Of a stretch of 41,011 bases of DNA, positions 1,459 through 38,738 are shown one piece after another. Below the pieces are notes generated by a model. The model ran no database searches. It was not told the origin of the DNA and worked only from the letters and a program-made list of their open reading frames with translations. This stretch comes from a virus (taxonomy: Duplodnaviria; Heunggongvirae; Uroviricota; Caudoviricetes), in the IMG/VR virus record IMGVR_UViG_2563366930_000002, positions 1 to 41,011 of that record; one strand, given 5' to 3'. Position 1 is the first letter of the stretch; the number at the start of each line of letters is the position of its first letter. The position numbers were made by a program, and so were the translations under genes.

Positions 1459-2622
1459 TTACACATCATTAGTACCTTCCTTATTTTTTGACTGGGACAA
1501 ATTTGGGACCGATGGGTTCAGGATCGAGTCTATTTGCCGTGCGTGTTCGGTAAGGTGATTAGGTGCAAGGTGAGCATATCGACGAACCATTTCGATAGAC
1601 TCCCAGCCTCCCATTTCCTGTAACACTGACAACGGGACTCCGGCTTGAACCAGCCAACTTGCCCAGGTGTGTCTCAAGTCGTGAAATCTGAAATCATCAA
1701 TACCAGCCCGTCTCAGCGCCGCTTTCCAGGCTGTGTTTGCGTCATACCGCATCTTCCTTACTGTTGGCGCTTTCGTTCCGTCTGGTTTGGTACAGCTTTC
1801 CTTGTACACAAATACCCAACGGTGATGATTCCCGATTTGTTTTTTCAAAACGCGACATGCAGTATCATTCAGCGCAACGCCGATTGCGCGGTTTGATTTA
1901 CTCTCTTCCGGGTTTATCCATGCCACCCGGCGCTGCATATCTATTTGTTGCCATTCAAGGTTGATGATGTTCGAGCGTCTTAAGCCTGTTGCCAGTGCAA
2001 ATTCAACAACAGACTTTAATGGCTCCGGACATTCATCAATCAGCCTTTGTGCTTCATGGGGCTCCAGCCAGCGGATCCGTTTATTCTTTGGTTGAGGCAC
2101 TTTAATAATTGGTGCCTTATCCAGCATTTTCCATTCACGCTCTGCGGCTCTTAGTAGGGCCTTTATAAATGAAAGATGCGTAGCCTTCGTTGCAACGGAC
2201 GCTGGTTTTGGCGTGTATTCTGGAACAGGTTTCCCTTTTTTTCTGCATGCTTCTGCCCTGAGTTTCCAGTTTTCCTCATGACGCCGGTTCGTCATTTTCT
2301 GCATTGCTGAATAAATTTTTGATTCAGTAATGTCTCTTAGTTGCATTCCTGCGAAATGTTGAAGCCAGAATCCGATCCGGCTTTTGTCATCGTCCAGTGA
2401 TTTTTTATGTGCTTTCTCTTCAAGCCACCTGACACACGCTTCCTCGAACGTTATATCAGGTATTTCACCAAGTTTGCTGACCCGCCATGCTTCAGCCTTT
2501 AGCTTGTCATGGAGTTCTGTCGCCTGCCTTTTGTCCTTTGTTCCAAGAGACTGTTTAAATCTTTTACCGTTCGGCAATGTGAAACTGGCGTACCATATTT
2601 CACCTCTGCGGAAGAGTGACAT
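1459..2622 (-). CDS. int: Tyrosine site-specific integrase, 387 aa
   Basis: N-terminus [14 protein letters not shown] and C-terminal [10 protein letters not shown]...VLQEMGGW...RYAHL are typical of lambda-family integrases; sits 15 nt from the tRNA 3' end. Confidence 0.95.
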
Positions 2623-5060: not shown

Positions 5061-5423
5061 TTAATGACCTGCTGCGCGGAGTTTTCCGTCAGGCTCACCG
5101 GCAAGAGTCAGTAATTGTCCCTGGTCTTCCTGCAGAATAGTCAGGCGACCACCGCGATTGACATACATCGGCGTTTCGGTGGTGTCTTCTTCGGAAATTT
5201 TCCCACGGTTAGTCGGGCGAACATATGAGAGTTTGTGTTTGATTTTCACACGGTTCTCATCAAATGGTTCGATTTCCAGGTTGAGTGAGACCTTACCTTT
5301 GGTTTTCGTGTTCATCACACCGGAAGCGACTTCACTGAGAACTGCGCCGATTTTGGTTTCAAATACGCCGCCGTCCAGCTCCCCGATAAATGCCTGCACA
5401 TCAGTACTGCGTTCGCTAGCCAT
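5061..5423 (-). CDS. Hypothetical protein, 120 aa (YfdP-like position); start trimmed to MASERSTD
   Basis: GAGGAG Shine-Dalgarno 8 nt upstream of the ATG at 5423; the longer ORF to 5741 has an implausible Arg/Cys/His-rich N-terminus. Confidence 0.7.
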   Translation of the reverse strand: MASERSTDVQAFIGELDGGVFETKIGAVLSEVASGVMNTKTKGKVSLNLEIEPFDENRVKIKHKLSYVRPTNRGKISEEDTTETPMYVNRGGRLTILQEDQGQLLTLAGEPDGKLRAAGH

Positions 5424-5860
5424 TTTGCTGCTCCTCATCATATCGACCCTGCAAGGCCGATTAGTTTCTCCACAAAACAGAGAAGAACACCTGCGGTGGC
5501 AGCCGCCCGGATGGATTGGGTTATGAGCCCGTCGTCCGGTGATGCTCTTCTCTGTTTTGTAAAAAGGACGGTACCAGCCGGAAGCAAGGGTACAAACTGG
5601 TACCGCCAGGACTACACACAGCATAAAGTTGTGGTGCCGGGTGCCTCCCGGTGCCTGGCGAAGGTTGCACACCAGACGGGTGGGTATCCACAGAAGGTCG
5701 ACTGTCAGCCTCAACCTTAACCCGCGTGCGCTGAGCCGCATTCACCACAACGCTAAGGATTCTCTTTGGTTGAAAATACTTAGCTGTTATGTGCCTGTCT
5801 TTTCACCACTTCAGGCTCGGTGGTATCCTTTTAAGCCCGTATACATAAAAGGAAAATCAA
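5424..5860. other. GC-rich, ORF-poor, hairpin-dense region; candidate structured RNA or cis-acting DNA site
   Basis: 15 bp perfect inverted repeat ACAAAACAGAGAAGA (5473-5487 / 5546-5560); GGTACCAG/CTGGTACC stem (5570-5604); CCGGG/CCCGG hairpin (about 5636-5652); no ORF with credible composition or signals. Confidence 0.4.
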
Positions 5861-6106
5861 ATGACTTTTGATGAAAAAGAACTTGATAATGCAATTAATA
5901 AAATCATCGTAACGTCGCTCTTTTCCTGTCTCAGCGACACTCAGCAGAAACAGTTCTACGAATCGGCTTTCAACATGATCGAGCGTTGTTGTTTCTGCGA
6001 TGCCGACGAGTTACCTGAAAAAATCAGGAAACAGTTGGCTGATGCTCTTCGAGTGCGACTTTCTGACCAATTTTCTGAAATGTGCTCTCCGAATTTGGAC
6101 AAATAG
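5861..6106 (+). CDS. Hypothetical small protein, 81 aa, opposite in orientation to the surrounding early operon
   Basis: AAGGAAA Shine-Dalgarno 7 nt before ATG; protein-like composition. Confidence 0.45.
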   Translation: MTFDEKELDNAINKIIVTSLFSCLSDTQQKQFYESAFNMIERCCFCDADELPEKIRKQLADALRVRLSDQFSEMCSPNLDK

Positions 6107-6299
6107 AAAAAGGCCATTTCCATTCAGGGGCTGATGGAAATACTTCAGCCTGTTCCAAAGCACGGCGTAAAGAGAACACAACTCCAGCCATAATCTGATG
6201 TTTCCCATTGGTCCAGCTATCGCCGCTCTGATCTACAGGGGCGGCTATGTCGTATGACCAAACGACTTCACAGTTATTGTTTAAAATCTGGACTTTCAT
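6024..6299 (-). CDS. Hypothetical small protein, about 91 aa from internal Met MKVQIL; 3' end overlaps the convergent ORF
   Basis: AGGTG Shine-Dalgarno 7 nt upstream of ATG at 6299; C-terminal 80 nt overlaps 5861-6106, so one of the two ends is probably wrong. Confidence 0.35.
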   Translation of the reverse strand: MKVQILNNNCEVVWSYDIAAPVDQSGDSWTNGKHQIMAGVVFSLRRALEQAEVFPSAPEWKWPFSICPNSESTFQKIGQKVALEEHQPTVS

Positions 6300-6427
6300 T
6301 TCATACACCTGCTTTAACATGAGTGCCTAGTGGCACAACATGACTCAACGAATCATCCTGGACTTCATATGCCCCAGGCGGCTACTTCGTGGGCGTCCTG
6401 CCTGTTCGTTGTCGGTAAAATGATATT

Positions 6428-6467: not shown

Positions 6468-6770
6468 TTAAGGGCATAAAAACGCATTTTGAAATTAATT
6501 CATTGAATTTACAGGTAAAATATTTTGGGGGCTATGATCAAAAAATTATATTGTGAAGTTAGCTGAGTTGTAGAACGTGATGGATTGTTTCATTGTGGCT
6601 GAGATCAGTATGTGATCTAGTTAATCATCAAGTGGGGAGAAGTCAATCATGAGAGTATTGTTGAGTTTTTGGAGGCTAAGTGTAAAACGGTAGGGAATTT
6701 ACTACTCAATGGATTGTGTGATTTAGCCTCGATAGTAAGAAAACTAGGGCAGGTCATAGTCAAAAACTTA

Positions 6771-19425: not shown

Positions 19426-21155
19426 GCCGGAAATCTTACCCCAACGTAAATGCTGCCAATCAGTATGCCCGGGATGTCGTGCGCGGAAAGATTGTGGCCT
19501 GCCAGTTTGTGATTCAGGCCTGCCAGCGCCATCTTGATGACCTGATGGCGGAAAAAAGTAAGTCGTTTCGTTACCGCTTCGACAAGGACCTGGCTGAACG
19601 GGCCGCCAAATTTATTCAGCTGTTGCCGCACACCAAGGGTGAGTGGGCATTCAAGAGGATGCCCATCACGCTGGAGCCGTGGCAGCTCTTTGTGATCTGC
19701 TGTGCGTTTGGCTGGGTCAATAAAGGCACCCGGCTGCGCCGCTTCCGGGAGGTGTATACCGAAATCCCCCGTAAGAACGGCAAATCAGCAATCTCTGCCG
19801 GTGTCGCCCTGTATTGTTTTGCCTGTGATAACGAGTTCGGCGCGGAAGTGTATTCCGGTGCCACGACGGAGAAACAGGCATGGGAAGTCTTTCGTCCGGC
19901 AAGACTGATGTGTAAACGCACACCCATGCTGACGGAAGCGTTCGGGATTGAGGTTAACGCCTCAAACATGAATCGTCCGGAGGATGGCGCGCGGTTTGAA
20001 CCGCTGATCGGTAACCCCGGTGATGGTTCATCACCCCACTGTGCGGTGGTGGATGAATATCACGAGCACGCCACCGATGCGCTTTACACCACGATGCTTA
20101 CCGGGATGGGGGCGCGACGTCAGCCACTGATGTGGGCCATTACTACTGCCGGGTACAACATTGAGGGGCCGTGCTACGACAAGCGACGGGAAGTTATCGA
20201 GATGCTCAACGGGTCGGTACCCAACGATGAACTGTTCGGGATCATCTATACCGTTGACGAAGGCGATGACTGGACCGACCCGCAGGTGCTGGAAAAAGCT
20301 AACCCGAATATTGGCGTGTCGGTTTATCGCGAATTTTTGTTAAGTCAGCAGCAGCGTGCGAAAAATAACGCCCGTCTGGCAAACGTCTTTAAAACAAAAC
20401 ACCTCAATATCTGGGTGTCGGCGCGTTCGGCGTATTTCAACCTGGTGAGCTGGCAGAGCTGCGAGGATAAATCACTGACCCTTGAGCAGTTCGAGGGGCA
20501 GCCGTGCATTCTGGCCTTTGACCTGGCGCGTAAGCTGGATATGAACAGCATGGCGCGACTTTATACCCGCGAGATTGACGGTAAAACGCATTACTACAGT
20601 GTGGCCCCGCGTTTCTGGGTACCGTATGACACGGTGTACAGCGTCGAGAAAAATGAAGATCGACGGACAGCCGAACGCTTTCAGAAATGGGTGGAAATGG
20701 GCGTTCTGACCGTTACCGATGGTGCGGAGGTGGATTATCGCTACATCCTCGAGGAGGCCAAAGCGGCGAACAAAATCAGCCCGGTCAGTGAGTCACCCAT
20801 CGACCCCTTCGGGGCGACCGGGTTGTCACATGACCTTGCTGATGAAGACCTGAACCCCATCACTATCATTCAGAACTACACCAACATGTCCGACCCGATG
20901 AAAGAGCTGGAAGCGGCAATTGAATCGGGGCGCTTTCATCATGATGGCAATCCCATCATGACCTGGTGTATCGGCAACGTGGTCGGCAAAACCATTCCGG
21001 GTAACGATGATGTGGTGAAGCCCGTCAAAGAGCAGGCGGAAAACAAAATCGATGGTGCAGTTGCGCTGATTATGGCGGTTGGCAGAGCCATGCTGTACGA
21101 GAAAGAAGACACGCTGTCTGACCACATTGAGTCCTATGGGATCCGCTCGCTTTAA
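19422..21155 (+). CDS. Terminase large subunit
   Basis: 577 aa with ATPase N-domain and nuclease C-domain features; immediately upstream of portal. Confidence 0.93.
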
Positions 21156-21166
21156 CTGAGGTAATT

Positions 21167-21349
21167 ATGATCATGCTGATTCTCGCGCCTCTGGTGGGCG
21201 TGCTGGGGGCGCTTTTGCTGGCGTATGGTGCCTGGCTGATTTATCCCCCGGCGGGGTTTGTTGTTGCCGGGGCGTTGTGTCTGTTCTGGTCGTGGCTGGT
21301 GGCGCGATATCTCGACCGTACACAGTCGTCTGTCGGCGGAGGTAAATAG
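21167..21349 (+). CDS. Small hydrophobic protein, 60 aa
   Basis: Two predicted transmembrane segments between terminase and portal; short and GC-rich, so it could be spurious. Confidence 0.3.
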
Positions 21350-22590
21350 TGTTCTTTTCGGGATTATTTCAACGAAAAAGTGACGCACCGGTGACCACGC
21401 CAGCAGAGCTGGCGGATGCTATCGGGTTGTCCTACGACACCTATACCGGAAAGCAGATCAGCAGCCAGCGGGCCATGCGACTGACGGCGGTTTTTTCCTG
21501 TGTCAGGGTGCTGGCGGAGTCGGTCGGGATGTTGCCCTGCAACCTGTATCACCTGAACGGCAGTCTGAAGCAGAGAGCCGCTGGCGAACGTCTGCATAAG
21601 CTGATCTCCACGCATCCCAATGGCTATATGACGCCGCAGGAGTTCTGGGAGCTGGTGGTCACCTGTCTGTGCCTGCGGGGAAACTTTTACGCCTACAAAG
21701 TGAAAGCATTTGGCGAAGTGGCTGAACTGCTGCCCGTCGATCCCGGCTGTGTGGTACCGAAGCTTAACAGTAGCTGGGAGCCGGTCTATCAGGTCACATT
21801 CCCGGATGGCTCCACGGATGTACTGAGCCAGGAGGATATCTGGCATGTGCGCACGCTGACGCTGGACGGACTGGTGGGGCTGAATCCCATCGCCTATGCC
21901 CGCGAGGCAATATCGCTGGCGGCAGCGACCGAAGAGCACGGGGCCAGACTGTTCAGCAATGGCGCGGTGACGTCGGGTGTGTTGCGTACAGAGCAGACGC
22001 TGTCAGATCAGGCTTATGAGCGCCTGAAGAAAGATTTTGAGGAGCGTCACACCGGGCTTGGCAATGCTCACCGCCCGATGATCCTTGAGATGGGGCTGGA
22101 CTGGAAGTCGATGGCGCTGAACGCCGAGGACAGCCAGTTCCTGGAAACCCGCAAGTTTCAGCTTGAAGAAATCTGTCGTCTGTTCCGGGTACCGTTGCAC
22201 ATGGTGCAGAACACCGATCGCGCCACCTTCAACAATATCGAAGAACTGGGGCTCGGATTTATCAACTATTCACTGGTGCCGTATCTGACCCGCATCGAAC
22301 AGCGGATCAACACCGGACTGGTACGAAAAAGTAAGCAGGGCGTTTATTACGCCAAATTTAACGCCGGGGCGTTACTGCGCGGGGATATGAAGTCCCGTTT
22401 TGAAGCCTACGCCACCGGGATTAACTGGGGAATTTACTCTCCCAATGACTGCCGCGACCTGGAAGATATGAATCCGCGTCCCGGTGGTGATGTCTATCTC
22501 ACACCGATGAACATGACCACGAAACCCTCCGATGGCAGTAAAGCCGGTAAGCAGAAGGATAACGCCAATGCAGACGAAACAACGTCTTGA
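21349..22590 (+). CDS. Portal protein (HK97 family), GTG start
   Basis: 413 aa between terminase and prohead protease; GGAGG Shine-Dalgarno before the GTG. Confidence 0.9.
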   Translation: MFFSGLFQRKSDAPVTTPAELADAIGLSYDTYTGKQISSQRAMRLTAVFSCVRVLAESVGMLPCNLYHLNGSLKQRAAGERLHKLISTHPNGYMTPQEFWELVVTCLCLRGNFYAYKVKAFGEVAELLPVDPGCVVPKLNSSWEPVYQVTFPDGSTDVLSQEDIWHVRTLTLDGLVGLNPIAYAREAISLAAATEEHGARLFSNGAVTSGVLRTEQTLSDQAYERLKKDFEERHTGLGNAHRPMILEMGLDWKSMALNAEDSQFLETRKFQLEEICRLFRVPLHMVQNTDRATFNNIEELGLGFINYSLVPYLTRIEQRINTGLVRKSKQGVYYAKFNAGALLRGDMKSRFEAYATGINWGIYSPNDCRDLEDMNPRPGGDVYLTPMNMTTKPSDGSKAGKQKDNANADETTS

Positions 22591-23218
22591 TGTACCGCTG
22601 AGTCTGAAATCTGTCAGTGACTCCGGTGAGTTTGAAGGGTATGGCTCCGTCTTTGGTGTAAAGGACAGCCACGATGATGTGGTGATGTCCGGGGCATTTG
22701 CTGCTTCCCTGCGGGCGTGGAGTGACAGAAAAGCGTTACCTGCGCTGCTCTGGCAGCACCGCATGGATGAACCCATCGGTGTTTACACCGAAATGAAGGA
22801 AGACGATGTCGGGCTTTACGTCAGGGGACGGTTGCTTATTGATGATGATCCCCTCGCAAAACGCGCACATGCACACATGAAGGCCGGTTCGTTAACCGGC
22901 CTTTCTATTGGGTACGTCCTGAAAGACTGGGAATACGACCGGAGCAAAGAAGCCTTTCTGCTGAAAGAAATCGACCTCTGGGAAGTCAGCCTGGTGACGT
23001 TCCCGTCTAACGACGAGGCGCGGATCAGCGACGTCAAGAACGCACTGGCCCGCGGGGAAATCCCCGAACAGAAAAAAATCGAAAGAGTCCTGCGTGATGT
23101 CGGACTCTCCCGTACCCAGGCCAAAGCATTCATGGCCGGGGGCTATGGCGCACTGTCCCTGCGCGACGCTGAGGATGTGGGCTCTGCACTGAATGCACTG
23201 AAAAATCTGAACTTCTAA
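22568..23218 (+). CDS. Prohead maturation protease (HK97 family)
   Basis: Start at MQTKQRLDV overlapping the portal 3' end; N-terminal region (GYGSVFGVKDSHDDVVMSGAF) typical of the family. Confidence 0.85.
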   Translation: MQTKQRLDVPLSLKSVSDSGEFEGYGSVFGVKDSHDDVVMSGAFAASLRAWSDRKALPALLWQHRMDEPIGVYTEMKEDDVGLYVRGRLLIDDDPLAKRAHAHMKAGSLTGLSIGYVLKDWEYDRSKEAFLLKEIDLWEVSLVTFPSNDEARISDVKNALARGEIPEQKKIERVLRDVGLSRTQAKAFMAGGYGALSLRDAEDVGSALNALKNLNF

Positions 23219-23232
23219 TCAGGAGAAATACG

Positions 23233-24438
23233 ATGGCGGTTGATATTAAAGATGTGGAACAGGTCGCGCAGGAGCTGCAGCAGAAGTTTGACGACTTCAA
23301 AGCAAAGAACGACAAGCGCGTGGATGCGATTGAGCAGGAAAAAGGCAAACTTGCCGGGCAGGTGGAAACCCTGAACGGGAAACTCAGCGAGCTGGAAAAC
23401 CTCAAAAGCGATCTTGAAAAAGAGTTGCTTGAGCTGAAACGTCCGGCAGGTGGTGCGCAAAATAAACTGGCCACCGAGCATAAAGAGGCGTTTGTGTGCT
23501 TCCTGCGTAAAGGCCGTGAAGACGGTCTGCGCGATCTGGAGCGTAAGGCATTGCAGGTGGGCACCGATGAAGACGGTGGCTATGCCGTGCCGGAAGCGCT
23601 GGATCGCAACATTCTCAACCTGCTTAAAGATGAAGTGGTGATGCGTCAGGAAGCCACGGTGATCACCGTTGGCGGTTCCGACTACAAAAAACTGGTGAAT
23701 CTGGGCGGTACGGCTTCCGGATGGGTGGGGGAAACGGATACGCGATCCCAGACTGCCACCTCCAGACTGGAGCTGATTGAACCTCTCATGGGGGAAATCT
23801 ACGGTAACCCGCAGGCCACCCAGAAAATGCTGGACGATGCCTTTTTCAACGTGGAGGCCTGGATCAACAGCGAGCTGGCAACCGAATTTGCCGAACAGGA
23901 AGAAATTGCCTTTACCTCAGGCGATGGCACCAAGAAGCCGAAAGGGTTCCTGGCGTATGAATCCACTGATGAAACCGATAAGGTCCGGGCGTTCGGCAAA
24001 CTTCAGCATATTGTATCCGGCGACGCGACTGCGGTGACCGCAGACGCCATTATCAAACTGATTTACACGCTGCGTAAGGCACACCGCACCGGCGCGAAGT
24101 TCATGATGAACAACAACAGCCTGTTTGCCATCCGTCTGCTGAAAGACACCGAGGGTAACTATCTGTGGCGTCCGGGGCTGGAACTGGGGCAGCCGTCCTC
24201 TCTGGCGGGTTACGGTATCGCTGAAAACGAACAGATGCCGGATATCGCCGCTGATGCGAAAGCCATTGCATTTGGTAACTTCAAACGGGGTTACACCATC
24301 GTTGACCGTATCGGCACCCGCATTCTGCGTGACCCGTACACCAATAAACCGTTTGTCGGTTTTTATACCACCAAGCGCACCGGCGGGATGCTGGTCGATT
24401 CGCAGGCCATCAAACTGCTGAAGATTGCAGCGGCGTAA
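23233..24438 (+). CDS. Major capsid protein (HK97 fold) with N-terminal coiled-coil scaffolding domain
   Basis: 401 aa; AGGAGAAA Shine-Dalgarno; coiled-coil N-terminus then capsid domain; follows the protease. Confidence 0.9.
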   Translation: MAVDIKDVEQVAQELQQKFDDFKAKNDKRVDAIEQEKGKLAGQVETLNGKLSELENLKSDLEKELLELKRPAGGAQNKLATEHKEAFVCFLRKGREDGLRDLERKALQVGTDEDGGYAVPEALDRNILNLLKDEVVMRQEATVITVGGSDYKKLVNLGGTASGWVGETDTRSQTATSRLELIEPLMGEIYGNPQATQKMLDDAFFNVEAWINSELATEFAEQEEIAFTSGDGTKKPKGFLAYESTDETDKVRAFGKLQHIVSGDATAVTADAIIKLIYTLRKAHRTGAKFMMNNNSLFAIRLLKDTEGNYLWRPGLELGQPSSLAGYGIAENEQMPDIAADAKAIAFGNFKRGYTIVDRIGTRILRDPYTNKPFVGFYTTKRTGGMLVDSQAIKLLKIAAA

Positions 24439-24487
24439 TCACTCAGGGGCGCGGAACCGCGCCCCCTGTTCTGACGGGTGAAGAATC

Positions 24488-24688
24488 ATGATCCTGAAAC
24501 AAGATCTGAAATGGTCACCGGACGGTATGCGTGTTGAGGTCATTCGGGCCGGTGAGTATGACGACGGGGCGCTTCCTGCCCGGGTGCAGGAGATTGCACT
24601 TCAGGCCGGGTTAGCAGAGCGCGGAACCAGTGCAAAAAGCAGTAAAGCGACAAAAGAGAAAAAAGCCACGACCAGTAAAGAGGGCTGA
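24488..24688 (+). CDS. Hypothetical small protein, 66 aa
   Basis: ORF with Lys-rich C-terminus between capsid and connector genes. Confidence 0.4.
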   Translation: MILKQDLKWSPDGMRVEVIRAGEYDDGALPARVQEIALQAGLAERGTSAKSSKATKEKKATTSKEG

Positions 24689-24690
24689 GT

Positions 24691-25014
24691 ATGCTTCTGA
24701 CAATGGAAGAGATTAAAGCCCAACTCCGGCTGGATGAGGATTTCGATGCTGATGACCGCCATCTGCAACTGCTGGCCTGTGCGGCGCAAAAGCGGACGGA
24801 AACGTATCTGAACCGGAAGCTCTATGCACCGGATGAAACCATTCCGGACAGCGACCCGGACGGACTGCACCTGCCGGATGATATTCGTCTGGGGATGCTG
24901 ATGCTTATCAGCCATTTTTACGAAAACCGCTCGTCGGTTACGGAAGTGGAGAAACTCGACATGCCGCAGAGTTTTGGCTGGCTTGTCGGCCCGTACAGGT
25001 ACTTTCCGCAATGA
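24691..25014 (+). CDS. Head-tail connector (gp6-like)
   Basis: 107 aa starting MEEIKAQLRLDEDFDADD, typical of this family; position after capsid. Confidence 0.75.
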   Translation: MLLTMEEIKAQLRLDEDFDADDRHLQLLACAAQKRTETYLNRKLYAPDETIPDSDPDGLHLPDDIRLGMLMLISHFYENRSSVTEVEKLDMPQSFGWLVGPYRYFPQ

Positions 25015-25421
25015 AAATTCGTCAGGCGCAGACCAGCGCAACCTACATTCTGCCGGACCCGGGTGAACTGAATAAACGCGTCCTGATCCGCCTGCGGGTG
25101 GATATGCCCGCGGATAACTTTGGCGTGGAGCCTCAATACCCGGTTACGTTCCGGACATGGGCGAAGGTTATCCAGACCAGTGCCACCACCTGGCAGGAAA
25201 CCGCGCAGACCGGGGACGCCATCACCCATTACATCACCATTCGTTACCGCCGGAGGATCACCGCTGATTATGAGGTGGTCTGCGGTGACAGTGTGTACCG
25301 GGTGAAACGTCAGCGCGATCTGAACGGGGCGCGGCGCTTTCTGCTGCTGGAGTGTACGGAGCTGGGCGAATGTAGGCAGAGTCACGGAGGCAGCAATGGC
25401 GACTCCCTTTTTTCACGTTGA
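25011..25421 (+). CDS. Head closure / head-tail adaptor protein
   Basis: Translationally coupled 136 aa ORF in the head completion module. Confidence 0.65.
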   Translation: MKIRQAQTSATYILPDPGELNKRVLIRLRVDMPADNFGVEPQYPVTFRTWAKVIQTSATTWQETAQTGDAITHYITIRYRRRITADYEVVCGDSVYRVKRQRDLNGARRFLLLECTELGECRQSHGGSNGDSLFSR

Positions 25422-25902
25422 TGTTCAGCAGCCCGCCGAGATGCGCTTTAACCGCGCCCGTGTCCGGCGGGCGTTTGTCACGATTGGGCAGCGTCATATG
25501 CGTGATGCCCGTCGGCTGGTGATGCGCCGTGCGCGGTCGGCACCGGGTGAAAACCCCGGTTATCAGACCGGACGCCTGGCTCGTTCGATTGGTTATATGG
25601 TGCCGAGAGCCAGTAAAAAGCGAGCCGGTTTTATGACACGCATTGCCCCTAACCAGCGCAACGGGAAGGGGAACCGGATGATCTCTGGTGACTTCTATCC
25701 GGCGTTTCTGTTTTTTGGTGTCCGGGGAGGAGCAAAACGTCGTCGTAGTCATCATCGTGGTGCATCCGGTGGCAGCGGCTGGCGACTGGCTCCACGTAAT
25801 AACTTCATGGTGGAAACTCTTGAAAAGAACCGCAGCTGGACACGCTATTTTCTGGCGCGGGAATTGCGTAAATCACTGAAGCCGGAGCGACGACACAGAT
25901 GA
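25396..25902 (+). CDS. HK97 gp10-like head-tail joining protein
   Basis: 168 aa basic ORF in conserved position. Confidence 0.65.
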   Translation: MATPFFHVDVQQPAEMRFNRARVRRAFVTIGQRHMRDARRLVMRRARSAPGENPGYQTGRLARSIGYMVPRASKKRAGFMTRIAPNQRNGKGNRMISGDFYPAFLFFGVRGGAKRRRSHHRGASGGSGWRLAPRNNFMVETLEKNRSWTRYFLARELRKSLKPERRHR

Positions 25903-26459
25903 AACTGACGCCTGTTATTGCTGCGCTGCGTGCCCGCTGCCCGTATTTTGAAAACCGGGTGGCAGGCGCGGCACAGTTCAAAAATCTGCCGGAGGTCGGA
26001 AAGCTGAGACTCCCGGCGGCGTATGTGGTACCGGGTGATGACTCTCCGGGAGAAAACAAAAGCCAGACCGACTACTGGCAGGAGCTGAAAGAGGGCTTCT
26101 CCGTGGTTGTCATACTGAGTAACGGGCGTGATGAGCGCGGTCAGTTTGCCTCGTATGATGTGGTGGACGATGTCCGGCAGATGCTCTTTAAGGCTCTGCT
26201 GGGCTGGAACCCGGAAGCGTGCGGTAACCCGATTACCTATGACGGCGGCACGCTGCTGGATCTGAATCGTCATGAGCTGATTTATCAGTTCGATTTTTCG
26301 GTCATCAGCGAGCTGACTGAAGACGATACCCGCCAGCAGGATGATCTGAACAGTCTGGATGAACTGCAAACGCTGGCGATTGATGTTGATTATCTCGAGC
26401 CCGGTAACGGGCCTGACGGCGATATCGAACATCACACCGAAATAACCCTTCCTTCCTGA
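25899..26459 (+). CDS. Tail completion / tail terminator-like protein
   Basis: 186 aa ORF immediately upstream of the sheath; assigned by position. Confidence 0.55.
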   Translation: MKLTPVIAALRARCPYFENRVAGAAQFKNLPEVGKLRLPAAYVVPGDDSPGENKSQTDYWQELKEGFSVVVILSNGRDERGQFASYDVVDDVRQMLFKALLGWNPEACGNPITYDGGTLLDLNRHELIYQFDFSVISELTEDDTRQQDDLNSLDELQTLAIDVDYLEPGNGPDGDIEHHTEITLPS

Positions 26460-26467
26460 GGATCCTC

Positions 26468-26638
26468 ATGTTTGTCAAACCTGTTAAAGGGCGGTCAGTT
26501 CCTGACCCTGCCCGCGGCGACCTTTTGCCCGCCGAAGGGCGAAATGTTGACGAGAACAACTACTGGCTGCGCCGTGAAGCAGCGGGTGATATCCGGCGCG
26601 TGAATAAAAAGGTGAACACCGATGACGATAAGCTTTAA
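26468..26638 (+). CDS. Small protein, 56 aa (below ORF-track cutoff)
   Basis: GAGGA Shine-Dalgarno 6 nt before ATG 26468; translation MFVKPVKGRSVPDPARGDLLPAEGRNVDENNYWLRREAAGDIRRVNKKVNTDDDKL; 3' end overlaps the sheath start. Confidence 0.45.
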   Translation: MFVKPVKGRSVPDPARGDLLPAEGRNVDENNYWLRREAAGDIRRVNKKVNTDDDKL

Positions 26639-28118
26639 CACCATTCCGTCGAATACGCTGGTTCCGCTGTTTTATGCGGAAATGGATAACCAGGCTGCGA
26701 ATACTGCACAGGACAGCGGAGCATCGCTGCTGATTGGTCATGCCAATAACGGTGCAGAGATTGTTGCCAACAGTCTGGTGCTGATGCCGTCGGCAGACTA
26801 TGCACGCCAGATTTGTGGTGCGGGAAGTCAGCTGGCGCGTATGGTCGAGGCTTATCGCCAGACCGACCCGTTTGGTGAGCTGTATGTGATTGCCGTTCCG
26901 GAAGCCACAGGCGCGGCGGCAACGGTTACGCTGACGGTGACCGGGGAAGCAACCGAAAGCGGCACGGTGAATGTCTATGTGGGACGTACCCGCGTGCAGG
27001 CTCCGGTGACCAACGGCGATAACGTCACGACGATTGCCAGCAGTATCAAAGATGCCATCAATGCCGTTCCGGCCCTGCCGTTTACGGCTTCATCTTCGGC
27101 AGGCGTGGTCACACTGACCGCGCGTCATAAGGGGCTTTGCGGGAATGAAATTCCTGTCAGCCTCAATTACTACGGCTTTGGTGGGGGCGAAGTGCTGCCA
27201 GCGGGCGTACAGATTGCCGTGGCGACGGGTACCGCCGGAACGGGTGCTCCGGTTCTCACCGGCGCGGTGGCTGCAATGGCGGATGAGCCGTTTGATTATA
27301 TCGGCCTGCCGTTCAACGACACGGCCTCCGTTAACACGCTGGTGACCGAGATGAACGATACCAGCGGTCGCTGGAGCTATGCGCGTCAGCTGTATGGTCA
27401 TGTGTATACGGCAAAGATCGGCACGCTGTCAGAACTGGTGACCGCAGGTGACCAGTTTAACCAGCAGCACATTACCCTGGCGGGGTACGAAAAAGACACC
27501 CAGACACCTGCCGACGAGCTGGCGGCAAGCCGTACCGCCCGCGCAGCGGTGTTTATCCGCAACGATCCGGCACGTCCCACGCAGACCGGTGAGCTGGTGG
27601 GTATGCTGCCTGCGCCGAAGGGGAAACGGTTCACGATGACCGAGCAGCAGACCCTGCTGTCTCATGGCGTGGCAACGGCGTATGTCGAAAGCGGGGTGCT
27701 GCGCATTCAGCGTGATGTCACCACGTACAGGAAAAACGCTTACGGGGTTGCGGATAACAGCTACCTCGACAGCGAGACGCTGCATACCAGCGCGTATGTG
27801 CTGCGCAAACTGAAATCCGTCATTACCAGTAAGTACGGGCGTCACAAGCTTGCCAGCGACGGTACCCGCTTTGGTTCCGGTCAGGCGATTGTCACCCCGG
27901 CGGTGATCAAAGGGGAACTGCTGGCAACCTACCGTCAGCTTGAGCGTGCGGGGATCGTGGAAAACTACGAACTTTTTAAGCAGTACCTGGTTGTGGAGCG
28001 TGATGCCAGCGATCCGAACCGCCTGAACACGCTGTTCCCGCCTGACTATGTTAACCAGTTGCGTGTCTTTGCCGTGGTTAACCAGTTCCGTCTTCAGTAT
28101 TCAGAGGAGTCCGCATAA
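26622..28118 (+). CDS. Contractile tail sheath protein
   Basis: 498 aa, Mu/P2-like sheath composition; followed by the tube gene with ATGA-type coupling. Confidence 0.9.
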   Translation: MTISFNTIPSNTLVPLFYAEMDNQAANTAQDSGASLLIGHANNGAEIVANSLVLMPSADYARQICGAGSQLARMVEAYRQTDPFGELYVIAVPEATGAAATVTLTVTGEATESGTVNVYVGRTRVQAPVTNGDNVTTIASSIKDAINAVPALPFTASSSAGVVTLTARHKGLCGNEIPVSLNYYGFGGGEVLPAGVQIAVATGTAGTGAPVLTGAVAAMADEPFDYIGLPFNDTASVNTLVTEMNDTSGRWSYARQLYGHVYTAKIGTLSELVTAGDQFNQQHITLAGYEKDTQTPADELAASRTARAAVFIRNDPARPTQTGELVGMLPAPKGKRFTMTEQQTLLSHGVATAYVESGVLRIQRDVTTYRKNAYGVADNSYLDSETLHTSAYVLRKLKSVITSKYGRHKLASDGTRFGSGQAIVTPAVIKGELLATYRQLERAGIVENYELFKQYLVVERDASDPNRLNTLFPPDYVNQLRVFAVVNQFRLQYSEESA

Positions 28119-28474
28119 TGGCCCGTATCGGGGGAACCTGTTATTTCAAAATTGACGGTCAGCAGCTATCGCTGACCGGCGGCATTGAGGTGCCCATGAA
28201 CAGGACGGTCAATGATGACATCATCGGCCTGGACGGTTCAGTGGACCGCAAGGAAACTCACCGTGCGCCTTATGTTAAAGGGACCTTCAAGGTGCCGAAG
28301 AATTTTCCGGTGAGCAAAATCACCTCGTCTGATGAGATGACCATCACTGCCGAGCTGGCGAACGGTCAGGTCTATGTACTGTCGTCTGCCTGGCTGCACG
28401 GCGAAGCGAACCATAATGCCGAAGAAGGCACGGTTGACCTTGAGTTCCACGGTGAAGAAGGGGATTACCAGTGA
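28118..28474 (+). CDS. Tail tube protein
   Basis: 118 aa ORF directly after the sheath. Confidence 0.8.
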   Translation: MARIGGTCYFKIDGQQLSLTGGIEVPMNRTVNDDIIGLDGSVDRKETHRAPYVKGTFKVPKNFPVSKITSSDEMTITAELANGQVYVLSSAWLHGEANHNAEEGTVDLEFHGEEGDYQ

Positions 28475-28794
28475 TTGAGCTTGTACTTAAAAAACCGATC
28501 ATCGCCCACAAAGAAACACTGCATGTGCTGGAAATACGTGAGCCTACGTATGACGAGATTGAGGCGCTGGGGTTCCCATTCTCTGTTTCGCCTGATGGTG
28601 GTATGAAAATGGACAGTCAGGTGGCGCTGAAATATATCCCGCTTCTGGCCGGGATTCCGCGCTCGTCTGCAGCGCAGATGACGAAGCTGGATATTTTCAA
28701 GGCAGGCATGATTGTAATGCGTTTTTTTACCGGCTTGGGGACGGAAGAGACCTCAGGAAGCGATTCTACAATGTCGCGTGGTTCTGGAAATTAA
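28471..28794 (+). CDS. Tail assembly chaperone; a -1 frameshift at T_TTT_TTT (28722-28728) would extend it to 28886
   Basis: Sits between tube and tape measure; slippery heptamer in frame; the -1 frame stays open for 52 codons and ends overlapping the tape-measure start. Confidence 0.75.
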   Translation: MIELVLKKPIIAHKETLHVLEIREPTYDEIEALGFPFSVSPDGGMKMDSQVALKYIPLLAGIPRSSAAQMTKLDIFKAGMIVMRFFTGLGTEETSGSDSTMSRGSGN

Positions 28795-28878
28795 ACCCCC
28801 TTGAACTTCGCCGGACGGCTATTTCCCACTTTGCTGATCTGGAGGCAGAGGCCGTCCGTATAAATGAGGAGATGAAGC

Positions 28879-30786
28879 ATGGCTGATAATTTTCAGCTGA
28901 AAGCCATCATCACCGCCGTTGACAGGCTATCCGGCCCGCTTAAAGGTATGCAGCGTCAGCTTAAGGGATTTCAGAAAGAAGTCTCCAGCCTTGCTCTGGG
29001 CGCTGCCGGGGCGGGTACTGCAATAATGGGGGCACTGGCACTCCCTGTAAAATCAGCCATCACCCTTGAATCGAAGATGGCTGATGTCCGCAAAGTGGTG
29101 GACGGTCTGGATACGCCGGATGCATTTAAGGCCATGACGGAGCAGGTACGCGCTTTGTCTACAGAGCTTCCCATGTCTGCAGACGGGATCGCGGAAATTG
29201 TGGCGGCTGGCGGTCAGGCCGGGATTGCACGTGATGAACTGATGCAGTTTGCCACTGATGCGGTGAAGATGGGCGTGGCCTTTGATACAACGGCTGAAGA
29301 GTCCGGGCAGATGATGGCCCAGTGGCGTACTGCGTTTAATATGACGCAGGATGAAGTGGCCGGGCTGGCTGACAAAATCAACTACCTTGGTAATACCGGC
29401 CCGGCGAATGCGAAGAAAATCTCCGATATTGTTACGCGTATTGGTCCTTTAGGTGGTGTTGCAGGTGTGGCTTCCGGCGAAATTGCGGCAATGGGGGCAA
29501 CCATTGCCGGGATGGGCGTGGAGTCAGAAATTGCCGCCACAGGGATCAAGAACTTCATGCTTTCCCTGACCGCGGGAAATTCTGCGACAAAATCGCAGAA
29601 ACAGGCATTGCGTTTTCTGCGGATCAATCCGAAGAAATTAGCTGCTGATATGCAGAAAGATGCCCGGGGCACCATGCTGTCTGTACTGGATGCGATGGCT
29701 AAAGTGCCTAAAGAAAAACAGGCCGCTGTGCTGAATGCCCTGTTCGGGAAAGAGTCTCTGGGCGCGATAGCACCTCTGCTGACTAACCTTGATTTGTTGC
29801 GTACCAACTTCAGGCGGGTTGCAGATTCCCAGCAGTATGGCAGTTCGATGCAGAAGGAATATGCTTCGAGGGCAGCGACGACGGAAAACCAGCTTTTACT
29901 TCTGCAAAATCAACTTGATGCCATTTCTTCCACGCTGGGGGAAACGTTTCTTCCTGAGGTTAATGATGGTCTTGAAGCGGTAAAACCGCTCCTTGAGGAA
30001 GTGAGAACGTTTGTCCGTGAAAACCCGGAGCTCGTTAAGACCATTGCTAAAATCGGTCTGGCCTTACTGACGGTGGGAGCCGCTGCAGGCTCTTTGTCCA
30101 GAATTATGAAAGTTCTCGGCGGTGTGATGAATATGACGCCAGCTAAGGGGCTGATTGCTCTTCTGGTTGGTGGCGCTTACCTCATTATTGATAACTGGGA
30201 AACCGTAGGCCCTGTCATAAAAAAAGTCTGGCACGTGGTGGATGAAACGGCGCAGGCGATGGGGGGATGGGAAACTGTTCTGAAAGCGATTGCCCTGTTT
30301 ATGGCAACCAAATGGGTTGCTGACGTTACCAAATCCATTACCGCAGTGACCAGAGAGATGCGTACGCTGGGGAAGGTATCGGCAGAAACGGGATTGATGG
30401 GGAAAGGCCGCGACTTTATCGGGAAGGCCGGGGTATATGGTTTTCTGGGAACCCTGATGTATGAGCCGGTTAAAGATACTCTGGAAAGTGTTGTTCCTGA
30501 AGATACGGTTAACTGGCTGGATAATAAAGGGCTGTTTCTGGCTTCAGACTGGACGCCTTTTTTTGATCGTAAAGAGTACGAGCAGTATCAGGCCAACCTG
30601 AGCCAGTACAAACCCAATGTTCCGCTGTTGAATCCATCTTCTTCCATGACACAGCACAGCGAACTGAAAGTCACGTTCGAGAATGCTCCGCCAGGTATGA
30701 AGATAATTGATGTACCGGGCAAAGCCGATCCCCTGATGAAAATCACGCACGATGTGGGGTATTCCCCTTTTCGTTTTCCACGATAA
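28879..30786 (+). CDS. Tail tape measure protein
   Basis: 635 aa, Ala/Gly-rich with hydrophobic segments; follows the chaperone. Confidence 0.9.
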   Translation: MADNFQLKAIITAVDRLSGPLKGMQRQLKGFQKEVSSLALGAAGAGTAIMGALALPVKSAITLESKMADVRKVVDGLDTPDAFKAMTEQVRALSTELPMSADGIAEIVAAGGQAGIARDELMQFATDAVKMGVAFDTTAEESGQMMAQWRTAFNMTQDEVAGLADKINYLGNTGPANAKKISDIVTRIGPLGGVAGVASGEIAAMGATIAGMGVESEIAATGIKNFMLSLTAGNSATKSQKQALRFLRINPKKLAADMQKDARGTMLSVLDAMAKVPKEKQAAVLNALFGKESLGAIAPLLTNLDLLRTNFRRVADSQQYGSSMQKEYASRAATTENQLLLLQNQLDAISSTLGETFLPEVNDGLEAVKPLLEEVRTFVRENPELVKTIAKIGLALLTVGAAAGSLSRIMKVLGGVMNMTPAKGLIALLVGGAYLIIDNWETVGPVIKKVWHVVDETAQAMGGWETVLKAIALFMATKWVADVTKSITAVTREMRTLGKVSAETGLMGKGRDFIGKAGVYGFLGTLMYEPVKDTLESVVPEDTVNWLDNKGLFLASDWTPFFDRKEYEQYQANLSQYKPNVPLLNPSSSMTQHSELKVTFENAPPGMKIIDVPGKADPLMKITHDVGYSPFRFPR

Positions 30787-36916: not shown

Positions 36917-37659
36917 ACTTGTTAATCTAGGGTAATTGTTGGAATAATACTCATTTTTCAGTAGGTTCAGGTAGCCTGGGTATAATGCTCACTTCTACAA
37001 TGATTTCAACTTATTTTATTTAATTGATATTACGAAACTTAACTCATACATAAACAATATGACTCAATACTGTCCTAAATAGCTGCGCAGAAAAGTGCTC
37101 CACTTTCGCTCAGCCCTTGCTGGGCGAAGCATCAGGAAGGCGTTCTCAGCTAGGTTGTGTTATATCTGGCTTGAGTTTTGTTGCCCATACGCAACACATT
37201 ACCCATCTGTAAACGACAAGTGTGACAGAATTAGGTGCAGCTATTTAGACTATATCGACGCAGTAACGATAATAGATATCGAAACTGTACTAGATATTAG
37301 CTACTTATGGTTACCGGGGGGAGTCTTTTGAGCACTGGTGTTATCAATCGGCTTCAAATAATTCACCAATAAATTATATTGCGATAGCTCATCACCTTCC
37401 AGGTTGTTTATAGCCAGTTTATCAGCGTCACCACCTACTGTTTATGCTTTTATTTCTTTGATTAATAAGTATATGATATTTTAATTCATCTGGTGTATTT
37501 CTTTCTCATGTGTTGGTCGACTGAATATCTGTTCAGTGAAGGGGTAATTTTATGTTTGCACTTCGAACATTCCCTTCAGTTGCTAGGAAAGAAAACCGTA
37601 ACATTTGCGCATTAATTTTAACAGTATAATCTGAGCATAAATATGCGCTATATATCTAT

Positions 37660-37687
37660 AAAAAGGCGCAATTAATTGCGCCTTTTT
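37660..37687. terminator. Bidirectional hairpin terminator
   Basis: Perfect palindrome AAAAAGGCGCAATTAATTGCGCCTTTTT adjacent to the acyltransferase stop. Confidence 0.6.
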
Positions 37688-37688
37688 A

Positions 37689-38738
37689 TCATTTTATCAA
37701 AAATGGCCCACCGACTGTCCTCGATAGCCAATGGCCAATTTTATCTGATACATATACACAAATACAGGTATATATGATTGCGCAGATAGGATTTGGAATG
37801 GTCACGCTGAAGCCTATGATTGCTAAAGCCATAGGGATAAATAATTTGGTGATATACTCCATTCCACATATGTTAAGAGTATTTCTTCCAGCTCTTACAA
37901 TAAAGTCATTCCCACAAATTATTTTTGCTATAAAGATATTAAATATTATCAAGCCTACCGTGGTGATAATAGTATTAATAGCTTGAATATAACTACTTGA
38001 TATTATGTCTGCATTGAATATTGAGATAATCTTAAAAAGCAAAGGTTTCTGGTTAAGGAGTTGATACGCACTCATTATCGCGGTAATTGAGAAGACAATG
38101 AAACCAATTTTAGATTTTCCAAAAAACCTGTCACGTGTTAATTCTAAAAACATACATCTACCGAGAGGCAATAACCACCAGTATGCCATAGCGGAGTCTA
38201 TGTTCCAAAACCATTGAGGATCTAGTAATGGGTTATGATTGAGCACTGTTTGTGACAACATGAACGATAATAGTGATATGATTAAAATCACTATATTGTT
38301 CTTGACTATTTCTTTAAAGATTGCATCAATTGCTATTATAACAAAAAGGCAGTTTATAAACCATATTGTTCCTACAAATTGGTTGTTTCTAACACCATAT
38401 ATTATATCATAAATGTGGCTATATATATAATCAATCGTCTCACCTGAGTTAATTGTGTTTATTATTAATATAGTAAATGCAAAAGTGAAATATGGAATCA
38501 TTAATCTGTAAAACTTTGACTTGATATAATCGAAAATAGATAAGTCATTTTTTTTGATAGTAAAAAAACCAGCAGCGAAAAAGAATAGTGGGACGTGATA
38601 ACTAAAAACAAAAGGATACAATTTGCCAGCCCCCAAACCAAGGTGACCTAAATATATAGCAAAAATACCGAGAAATTTTAAAGCATCAACCCAATCATGC
38701 CTTGTTTTTCTGTTGTTGTCGATTTTGTTATTATACAT
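37689..38738 (-). CDS. Integral-membrane acyltransferase (acyltransferase family 3, OafA/Oac-like O-antigen acetylase)
   Basis: 349 aa with about 10 hydrophobic segments; N-terminal motif RHDWVDALKFLGIFAIYLGH; about 28% GC. Confidence 0.85.
   Translation of the reverse strand: MYNNKIDNNRKTRHDWVDALKFLGIFAIYLGHLGLGAGKLYPFVFSYHVPLFFFAAGFFTIKKNDLSIFDYIKSKFYRLMIPYFTFAFTILIINTINSGETIDYIYSHIYDIIYGVRNNQFVGTIWFINCLFVIIAIDAIFKEIVKNNIVILIISLLSFMLSQTVLNHNPLLDPQWFWNIDSAMAYWWLLPLGRCMFLELTRDRFFGKSKIGFIVFSITAIMSAYQLLNQKPLLFKIISIFNADIISSSYIQAINTIITTVGLIIFNIFIAKIICGNDFIVRAGRNTLNICGMEYITKLFIPMALAIIGFSVTIPNPICAIIYTCICVYVSDKIGHWLSRTVGGPFLIK

Follow-up and report, generated by a model that had tools for sequence, protein, structure and literature searches.

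A pseudoknotted minus-strand RNA module in the early-left operon of an SfV-like prophage, probably a divergent branch of the STnc100/PasD superfamily

Identification of the RNA module

The viral DNA IMGVR_UViG_2563366930_000002 (Caudoviricetes; its whole 41,011-nt stretch is hereafter the window) carries, between a yfdP-like gene and orf33 in the early-left operon, a 437-bp region (5424–5860) in which a sequence-only reading had noted dense hairpins and had suggested either a non-coding RNA with structure or a DNA site acting in cis. We find that the minus strand of 5424–5784 probably codes for a modular non-coding RNA, a divergent branch of the STnc100/PasD superfamily that has so far gone unannotated; the members of this superfamily are small RNAs (sRNAs) of lambdoid prophages. 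The module comprises a covarying, pseudoknotted RNA domain, a downstream terminator, and a long duplex hairpin. The RNA is genuinely structured and of a kind already known in part, and the region is not a broken gene; family membership is established at the level of the fold.

At the curated thresholds of Rfam, the only call in the window was a tRNA, and STnc100 was not reported. The covariance-model search that the sequence-only reading had proposed was productive at permissive settings, giving a full-length match (model positions 1–206) to STnc100 (RF02076) at 5558–5773 on the minus strand (39.5 bits, E = 6.6e-7); no Rfam riboswitch family matched the region in the same permissive scan. A covariance model of our own (R1), built from 17 late-region members only and thus excluding window-type sequences, matched the window over its full length at 5628–5751 on the minus strand with 50 bits (E = 3e-11 to 1e-13), the innermost P2 pair being the only non-standard pair flagged. 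R1 also matched every window-type relative (36.9–60.9 bits), with no match in phage lambda or in positions 20000–40578 of the 40,751-bp HK022 genome. We assign the RNA to the minus strand because R1 scored 50 bits there versus 5.5 bits on the plus strand, and because several of the pairs are G-U, workable on the minus strand only. Folding of both strands of 5424–5790 gave −159 kcal/mol for the minus and −139 kcal/mol for the plus strand. A tRNA-like cloverleaf was rejected, given that no tRNA model matched within 5200–6200 at E ≤ 10 and that the loop of P5 is 5 nt long (AGGCA) and not a T-loop.

The three stems named by the sequence-only reading are all present, one arm having been placed a single nucleotide off. 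The perfect 15-bp inverted repeat lies at 5472–5486 / 5546–5560 (its left arm had been given as 5473–5487) and can be extended to 25 nt at 84% complementarity (5472–5496 / 5536–5560), CGGTACCAG / CTGGTACCG pairs perfectly over 9 bp (5569–5577 / 5597–5605), and CCGGG / CCCGG lies at 5637–5641 / 5647–5651. A 9-bp long-range helix (5628–5636 / 5743–5751) had not been picked up. The stems also go beyond chance: across 300 shuffles of 5424–5860 that kept its dinucleotides, the longest perfect repeat averaged 7.4 bp and never exceeded 11 bp, so that the 15-bp repeat was reached by none. Throughout the window, just one other perfect inverted repeat of at least 12 bp (gap ≤120) was found; it is 14 bp long with a 4-nt gap (37658–37671 / 37676–37689) and is probably a terminator. 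As minus-strand RNA, 5424–5570 folds at −62.5 kcal/mol (z = −5.96, equalled by 0 of 200 shuffles) and 5555–5780 at −82.6 kcal/mol (z = −2.05, equalled by 6 of 200). The stems do not form a single diffuse "hairpin-dense" region; they belong to a module with three distinct parts, namely the core, the terminator, and the long hairpin (Table 1).

The region shares 100% identity with Shigella phage SfV (U82619.2, 24617–25053), where it is the interval between orf32 (yfdP-like) and orf33 and has as its sole annotation part of a "putative terminator"; the literature on SfV and SfIV does not discuss it. Its GC content (0.52–0.58) exceeds that of the flanks (0.38–0.48). The 437-bp region was found in 2785 of 5426 complete E. 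coli genomes and is also carried by SfV-type, Stx-converting, and other lambdoid phages.

Structure and covariation of the core

Helices P1, P2, P4, and P5 and the pseudoknot were written onto an alignment of the 17 late-region members (A3), in which 92.5% of the cells were paired, compared to 43–47% when the partners were slid by 1–3 columns. Sixteen of the 30 pairs change on both sides, including four of the five pseudoknot pairs. A larger, R1-based alignment (A4; 92 matches, 88 distinct), which leans towards the structure of the model, showed 95% of base-pair cells paired versus 42–48% in the slid-partner control, and 19 of its 25 pairs covary, a number matched by 0 of 500 shuffles. The compensatory changes that the sequence-only reading had asked for in homologues are present in most of these pairs.

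The individual helices bear this out. Both sides change in seven of the eight P1 pairs in A4, and all eight P4 pairs covary; the U-G pairs of P4 would become A-C mismatches on the other strand. In P2, to which the minimum-energy fold adds two more inner pairs, the C-G pairs of canonical members become G-C in window-type sequences, a compensatory exchange (columns 15/50 and 17/48). The invariance of P5 in the first set of relatives is by construction, since only exact matches were searched for. An independent second search started from the P2 sequence of the window itself and recovered K-12 Qin-type relatives with CCUGG/CCAGG, a compensatory G-C to U-A change. The optional hairpin ahead of P1 is an insertion relative to the Klebsiella-phage copy; it is absent from locus L231, where P1 is 14 bp long instead.

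The register of the pseudoknot varies between subfamilies and column-wise counting failed, so we compared, sequence by sequence, the complementarity of each strand to its own and to shuffled loops. At least 6 contiguous base pairs were available in 84% of 69 distinct strand/loop combinations, compared to 12% with shuffled loops and 25% with the loops of other members, and the duplex occurs as 42 different sequences in the family. The pseudoknot is thereby supported by covariation. It is absent from the Rfam consensus structure of STnc100 and unmentioned in the 2026 preprint on Pas sRNAs, and relative to the sources covered here it appears to be new.

Table 1. Elements of the putative RNA module and its downstream gene, listed 5′ to 3′ on the minus strand (window coordinates).
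Element	Position	Strand	Details
Optional 5′ hairpin before P1	5752–5784	−	GCUAAGUAUUUUC.../...GAGAAUCCUUAGC; inverted repeat and minimum-energy fold
Core structured RNA domain, STnc100/PasD-type fold	5628–5751	−	124 nt; P1, P2, P4, P5, and pseudoknot
P1, 5′ strand GUUGUGGUG	5743–5751	−	Pairs with 5628–5636 (CACCACAAC); 9-bp perfect long-range repeat
P2 hairpin	5724–5739	−	GCG 5739–5737 pairs with CGC 5726–5724; R1 alignment and minimum-energy fold
Pseudoknot, 5′ strand AAGGUUG	5712–5718	−	Pairs with CAACCUU 5667–5661 in the P4 loop; 7 contiguous pairs
P4 hairpin GUCUGGUG / CGCCAGGC	5653–5677	−	9-nt loop is the pseudoknot 3′ strand
P5 hairpin CCGGG-AGGCA-CCCGG	5637–5651	−	Abuts the P1 3′ strand directly; the CCGGG/CCCGG hairpin of the sequence-only reading
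Single-stranded linker UUUAUGCUGUGUGUAGUCCU, candidate seed region	5608–5627	−	Unpaired in the minimum-energy fold
Intrinsic terminator	5561–5607	−	13-bp stem (5607–5567; 9 bp perfect, CGGUACCAG/CUGGUACCG), then CUUUUU; the GGTACCAG stem of the sequence-only reading
Long hairpin	5469–5563	−	23 continuous pairs (5563–5541 / 5491–5469), 23–27 bp overall, small branched tip; contains the 15-bp repeat
Small 8-bp hairpin	5442–5461	−	Between long hairpin and yfdP ribosome-binding site; fold
yfdP ribosome-binding site	~5430–5436	−	GAGGAG; AUG at 5423
yfdP-like gene, 120 aa	5061–5423	−	SfV orf32; annotated as "protein YfdP"; first gene downstream of the module (context only)

Linker, terminator, and long hairpin

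Between the core and the terminator lies the candidate seed region, which contains the motif (A/U)UGCUGUGU (5624–5616; AUGCUGUGU in the window), seen again ahead of the terminator in three related contigs (L032, L056, and L067). An intrinsic terminator is present in 63 distinct family members, in most of them 17–32 nt past P1. The terminator stems of L032, L180, and L088 are unrelated in sequence and end in the same CCUUUUUACA tail.

The long hairpin has the length expected of an RNase III-type substrate (a near-perfect duplex of at least 20 bp, about two helical turns). Pairing is kept in its variants, which change G-U to A-U, G-U to G-C, and, in one double change in L032/L223, G-C to A-U; one or two singleton variants break it. 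Unrelated hairpins of 20–24 bp occur beside the core or terminator in L180/L088 and in L056/L067, and hairpins of similar length at the same position indicate selection for structure and not sequence. Three different genes come after the long hairpin in other contigs; the hairpin travels with the RNA module and not with yfdP. By analogy, it is most plausibly an RNase III-type processing or insulating site for read-through transcripts. In the minimum-energy fold of the read-through RNA, we also noted that UCCUU in the terminator tail (5564–5568) pairs with GAGGA of the yfdP Shine-Dalgarno sequence (5432–5436), a predicted pairing that could mask the translation of yfdP.

Distribution and genomic position of relatives

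The best-conserved stretch of the module is CACCGGGAGGCACCCGGCACCA, which contains the CCGGG hairpin. A search of viral contigs with 20 nt of this stretch yielded 120 loci, which represent 117 distinct variants and fall into 35 clusters. These follow a common plan: GUGGUGAAU at the start, followed by a short hairpin and then by variable hairpins; a last hairpin just ahead of CA-CCGGG-AGGCA-CCCGG; CACCAC directly after it, pairing back to the start; and an intrinsic terminator ~20–30 nt later. Tandem arrays of 2–5 STnc100-like cores, ~250 nt apart, were seen in five of the viral contigs (L019, L027, L064, L010, and L081). In bacterial genomes, the short pattern CCNGGAGGCACCNGGCAC gave mostly chance matches in GC-rich bacteria, and only matches confirmed by R1 were used. 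R1 matched 24 of 100 pattern-matching genome contigs and none of the GC-rich chance matches among them; all 24 are from Enterobacterales, except one 388-nt contig labelled Prolixibacteraceae. The genera include Escherichia, Salmonella, Klebsiella, Raoultella, Kosakonia, Enterobacter, Citrobacter, Cedecea, and Pantoea.

Canonical members of the family lie in the late region, between the Q antiterminator (PF03589) and the holin/lysozyme genes or ahead of a PF03629 (sialate) esterase gene. In many of them, a TTGACA...TAAATT promoter ends just a few nucleotides ahead of P1, the position of the short pR′-tR′ transcript. The window-type branch is found in early-left operons, ahead of yfdP in the window, ahead of small ORFs upstream of kil in a Klebsiella phage, and, in E. 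coli K-12, in the dicF-dicB spacer of the Qin prophage (NC_000913.3, ~1649454–1649581; locus L227, 1155–1282). The K-12 spacer holds a window-type core (R1, 45.6 bits; Rfam STnc100, 34.4 bits) that ends ~28 nt before the dicB start codon. This candidate family member appears to be new, as the dicBF literature covered here does not describe it.

The stretch 5424–5608 is common, at ~96% identity, to Stx2c, mEp460, and cdtI phages, which differ upstream of it. In Stx2c-type and mEp460 phages, the terminator and long hairpin of the window are retained (~96%), and the core in that position is more diverged, scoring 10.6 bits with R1 in Stx2a_WGPS2 and 18.6 bits in mEp460. In the early-left region of the Stx2a_WGPS2 phage (AP012537.1; locus L229, ~1900–1930, minus strand), a GGTTCAATTCC fragment resembling a tRNA T-loop lies upstream of the diverged core.

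Proposed function and alternative explanations

As an sRNA, the module would be transcribed leftwards, starting at a weak local promoter or within the early-left transcript, and polymerases halted at the terminator would release an RNA of ~190–210 nt. By analogy with published relatives, its 3′ hairpin, U-tail, and single-stranded linker may bind Hfq and base-pair in trans with mRNAs. Transcription past the terminator would produce the long double-stranded hairpin, which could be cut by RNase III-type processing or act as an insulator, separating the sRNA from the yfdP-yfdS-xis-int message much as DicF is separated from dicBF.

Several findings weigh against this account. The window copy scores 39.5 bits and does not reach the Rfam gathering score of STnc100 (47 bits), nor does any window-type relative (23.7–45.8 bits). 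Canonical members are late and follow a strong promoter, whereas the window copy is early-left, and no minus-strand sigma-70 promoter was detected at the scan threshold within 5750–5900. A dedicated promoter was accordingly dropped; the best candidate by eye (AAGACA at 5801–5796, 17 nt, TATTTT at 5778–5773) has 8 of 12 matches. Given that a pL-like promoter is predicted at 6574–6545 on the minus strand (TCTACA-18-TATAAT) and that none was found locally, the early-left transcript may be the source of the RNA. The K-12 Qin and Klebsiella-phage copies are without a terminator, and a coding gene starts 25–40 nt past their P1. Expression and Hfq binding are known for canonical members only (PMC8550237, PMC5331693, PMC12711010). 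No mRNA target was found for the window RNA, its duplex energy with the ftsZ leader being no better than that of shuffles, and the putative RNase III cleavage is judged from stem length. Finally, among 33 close homologues, the minor-allele fraction was 0–0.003 in most core elements, up to 0.033 in the 5′ strand of P4, and 0.041 in the linker. With the core steadier than the linker, selection seems centred on the core, and an sRNA mechanism leaves unexplained both the elaboration of the core and its conservation above that of the putative seed.

It is because of this steadier core, and because of the terminator-less copies before dicB and the kil-region ORFs, that a cis-acting role stays the main rival. 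Here, the core would primarily be a leader of phage operons, acting on processing, stability, translation, or elongation, with the terminated small RNA as a by-product; we consider this a credible alternative, though one clearly less probable than an sRNA. The same core occurs inside operons in three settings (before dicB in K-12 Qin, before the ORFs upstream of kil in the Klebsiella phage, and between Q and holin/lysozyme), and copies that lead straight into a gene, as at dicB, are easier to reconcile with a cis-acting leader than with a free-standing sRNA. Nor would an sRNA that works by base pairing need a fold of several helices with a pseudoknot and invariant junctions. Against a leader that switches its terminator, the best complementarity between core and terminator averaged 6.0 bp in 63 distinct members versus 5.5 bp with a shuffled terminator strand, and with no enrichment of this alternative pairing, a riboswitch with an antiterminator was rejected. 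An unlikely form of the leader explanation holds that the core modifies RNA polymerase for processive antitermination, like the put RNA of HK022, so that transcription passes the terminator at 5607–5561. Downstream of the pL-like promoter, the N position is taken by orf33 (6024–6320, minus strand), which would suit an operon of this kind, as it has no Pfam match, is annotated only as "unknown" or hypothetical, and is by eye not arginine-rich like N; no N-type antiterminator was recognised in the early-left operon. Like put, the core is a structured RNA that precedes terminators within early operons, in a lambdoid phage that is N-less. The put RNA consists of two stems in ~70 nt (PMC9378689), in contrast to the four helices and pseudoknot of the 124-nt window core, the core motifs were not found in HK022 20000–30500, and R1 had no match in the HK022 stretch searched; a put-like antiterminator was rejected on these grounds. 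Terminated short RNAs of the family, moreover, accumulate in lysogens, arguing against efficient put-like read-through, and the late-region copies already have Q.

Two further explanations do without a functional RNA. Conservation could reflect a role of the DNA itself, as a protein-binding palindrome or as a recombination-promoting "linker" between mosaic modules. This would be in keeping with module boundaries that are mosaic junctions, such as those of 5424–5608 in phages that differ upstream, and with the three different genes that follow the long hairpin. We regard it as highly improbable, as G-U pairs and strand-specific covariation run through all helices and the pseudoknot, the covariance model matches one strand only, unrelated hairpins of similar length take the same position in relatives, and arms 39–58 nt apart are atypical for a protein-binding site. 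Of the two possibilities raised by the sequence-only reading, it is thus the structured RNA that our results favour, with the DNA site left as a minor rival. That the region is instead a decayed gene with incidental stems is least probable of all and has been largely refuted. The NCBI Prokaryotic Genome Annotation Pipeline (PGAP) does annotate, across the equivalent of 5438–5748, a pseudogene as "frameshifted hypothetical protein", open minus-strand ORFs of 49–106 aa exist, and the description of the region as ORF-poor was too strict, given ORFs of 49–80 aa on both strands. Yet no Pfam family matches any ORF of the region, and no frame is conserved in the homologues: stops occur in all three sense frames in 7 of 12, and core lengths of 122–143 nt differ by non-multiples of 3. 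The substitutions are compensatory in helices and not codon-periodic, and the ORF translations are rich in Arg, Cys, His, and Pro. A degraded gene with conserved codons, which the sequence-only reading had named as the outcome contrary to its own proposal, was thus sought through Pfam and homologue frames and did not emerge.

While an sRNA remains our preferred reading, we tentatively raise a broader possibility, namely that the ~125-nt pseudoknotted core is an autonomous RNA domain (for instance, one that binds or decoys a host or phage protein, or a processing or stability module) put by lambdoid prophages of Enterobacterales into early-left and late operons, to which Hfq-dependent 3′ tails are add-ons. 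If so, STnc100, PasD, and the window locus would be three faces of one larger RNA class, one that takes in the dicF-dicB spacer of E. coli K-12, and the function of the core would not be base pairing. The better conservation of the core compared to the presumed seed points to a further function, accessible in E. coli K-12. For annotation, the consequence is that window-type copies are missed by standard pipelines because they score under the Rfam threshold; at the window locus, PGAP calls a broken gene in place of the RNA.

Genomic setting

Upstream of the module, the 46-nt block 5784–5829 is found at 95% identity in several Klebsiella phages, where it is likewise flanked on one side by a small divergent ORF that is unannotated and on the other by a copy of the RNA core. 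From its sequence, this block reads better as a putative plus-strand promoter for the divergent small ORF than as a minus-strand promoter, the candidate elements being TTCACC (5802–5807), a 16-nt spacer with an ACCAC...GTGGT palindrome, and TGgTATCCT (5824–5829). In the window, the divergent ORF (5861–6106, plus strand) encodes 81 aa of protein-like composition; it has no annotation in SfV or from PGAP, and it converges on and overlaps orf33. The tRNA gene called by Rfam lies at 1369–1441 on the plus strand (71.8 bits) and is presumably the attachment-site tRNA of the SfV-like prophage.

Comparison with known systems

The closest known RNA is STnc100 (RF02076; overlapping EcOnc27/sRNA103 of E. 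coli O157:H7). The window copy shares its core fold, with the P1 closing helix, P2, P4, and P5, its CCGGG-AGGCA-CCCGG hairpin stacked on P1, its GUGGUGAAU 5′ strand, and its carriage by Enterobacterales prophages. A terminator ~20–30 nt past the core is likewise common to both; in the window, the 13-bp stem and CUUUUU tail follow 20 nt past P1. The two differ in P2 and the following stretch (GCGGCUCAGCGCACGCGG in the window, CCCCCUGUGCGGAGGGGCG in STnc100), and the window copy has no strong promoter immediately 5′ of P1 and carries a long hairpin after its terminator. They also differ in position, since STnc100 follows Q or stx and precedes lysis or nanS-p genes, whereas the window copy is early-left and upstream of yfdP; the family is thereby extended from the late region to an early-left operon. 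Canonical STnc100 is well documented, with 11 annotated copies in strain EDL933, all with transcriptome reads and one confirmed by Northern blot (PMC5331693), and with a copy downstream of stx2B that overlaps EcOnc27/sRNA103, an Hfq-bound RNA that raises fimZ and espA transcripts when overexpressed (PMC12711010).

PasD1 and PasD2 of enteropathogenic E. coli are Northern-verified, Hfq-stabilised sRNAs that act as hubs with many partners in sequencing data on RNA interactions captured by ligation (RIL-seq) (PMC8550237). PasD and STnc100 have been judged homologous, with a shared ancestor and fold (2026 preprint, bioRxiv 10.64898/2026.05.13.724894), and it is on this homology that the link between PasD and the window rests. 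PasD1 and PasD2 are, like STnc100, prophage-encoded, Hfq-dependent, and terminator-ended. They lie near Q and lpxR in late regions, unlike the window copy, and their seed is reported to differ from that of STnc100.

The canonical members of the family also resemble lambda 6S RNA and StxS in beginning just past the promoter between Q and the lysis genes and in ending at a terminator, a likeness that the window copy, outside the late region, does not share. Lambda 6S RNA and the StxS RNA of Stx2 phages are short promoter-proximal late transcripts used as sRNAs. In lambda, the late leader between tR′ and S (NC_001416, ~44850–44935; locus L125, 1048–1150) has GUGCUCUUU(C/U)CGUUGUG(G/C)UGAAU at or just before P1, a sequence also seen in some window-type relatives (L180, L088, L067, L032, and L229). 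The UGCUCUUU octamer, which we take to equal the core of rrn boxA, is absent from the window copy. The lambda leader further shares GUGCUCUUUCCGUUGUGCUGAAU and has a P1-like helix (GUUGUGCUG/CAGCACAAC); as it was matched by neither R1 nor the Rfam STnc100 model, and only this helix and flanking sequence are shared, it was rejected as a member.

The dicBF operon of the K-12 Qin prophage offers a parallel in organisation. RNase III and RNase E process DicF from a polycistronic RNA, the spacer after dicF being undiscussed in that work (bioRxiv 10.1101/2023.04.14.536235). The terminator half of the window module resembles DicF (UGGCGGUACCAGUUUGUAC versus UGGCGGUAUCAGUUUUAC), and the DicF model (RF00039) aligned there at 5566–5620 on the minus strand with 15.7 bits (E = 1.9), compared to a gathering score of 48 bits and 76.7 bits for the true K-12 DicF. 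DicF membership was rejected on this score and on the lack of DicF matches in the other window-type loci. ftsZ targeting gained no support from a crude test in which duplex energies with the ftsZ leader were at shuffle level for the window RNA and also for DicF itself. As operons, the two are alike in that both are early-left and bring together an sRNA ending in a terminator, a long hairpin of the RNase III type, and the core. The order is hairpin, DicF/terminator, core, and dicB in Qin, and core, linker/terminator, hairpin, and yfdP in the window, and the dicF-dicB spacer of K-12 is now assigned a structure.

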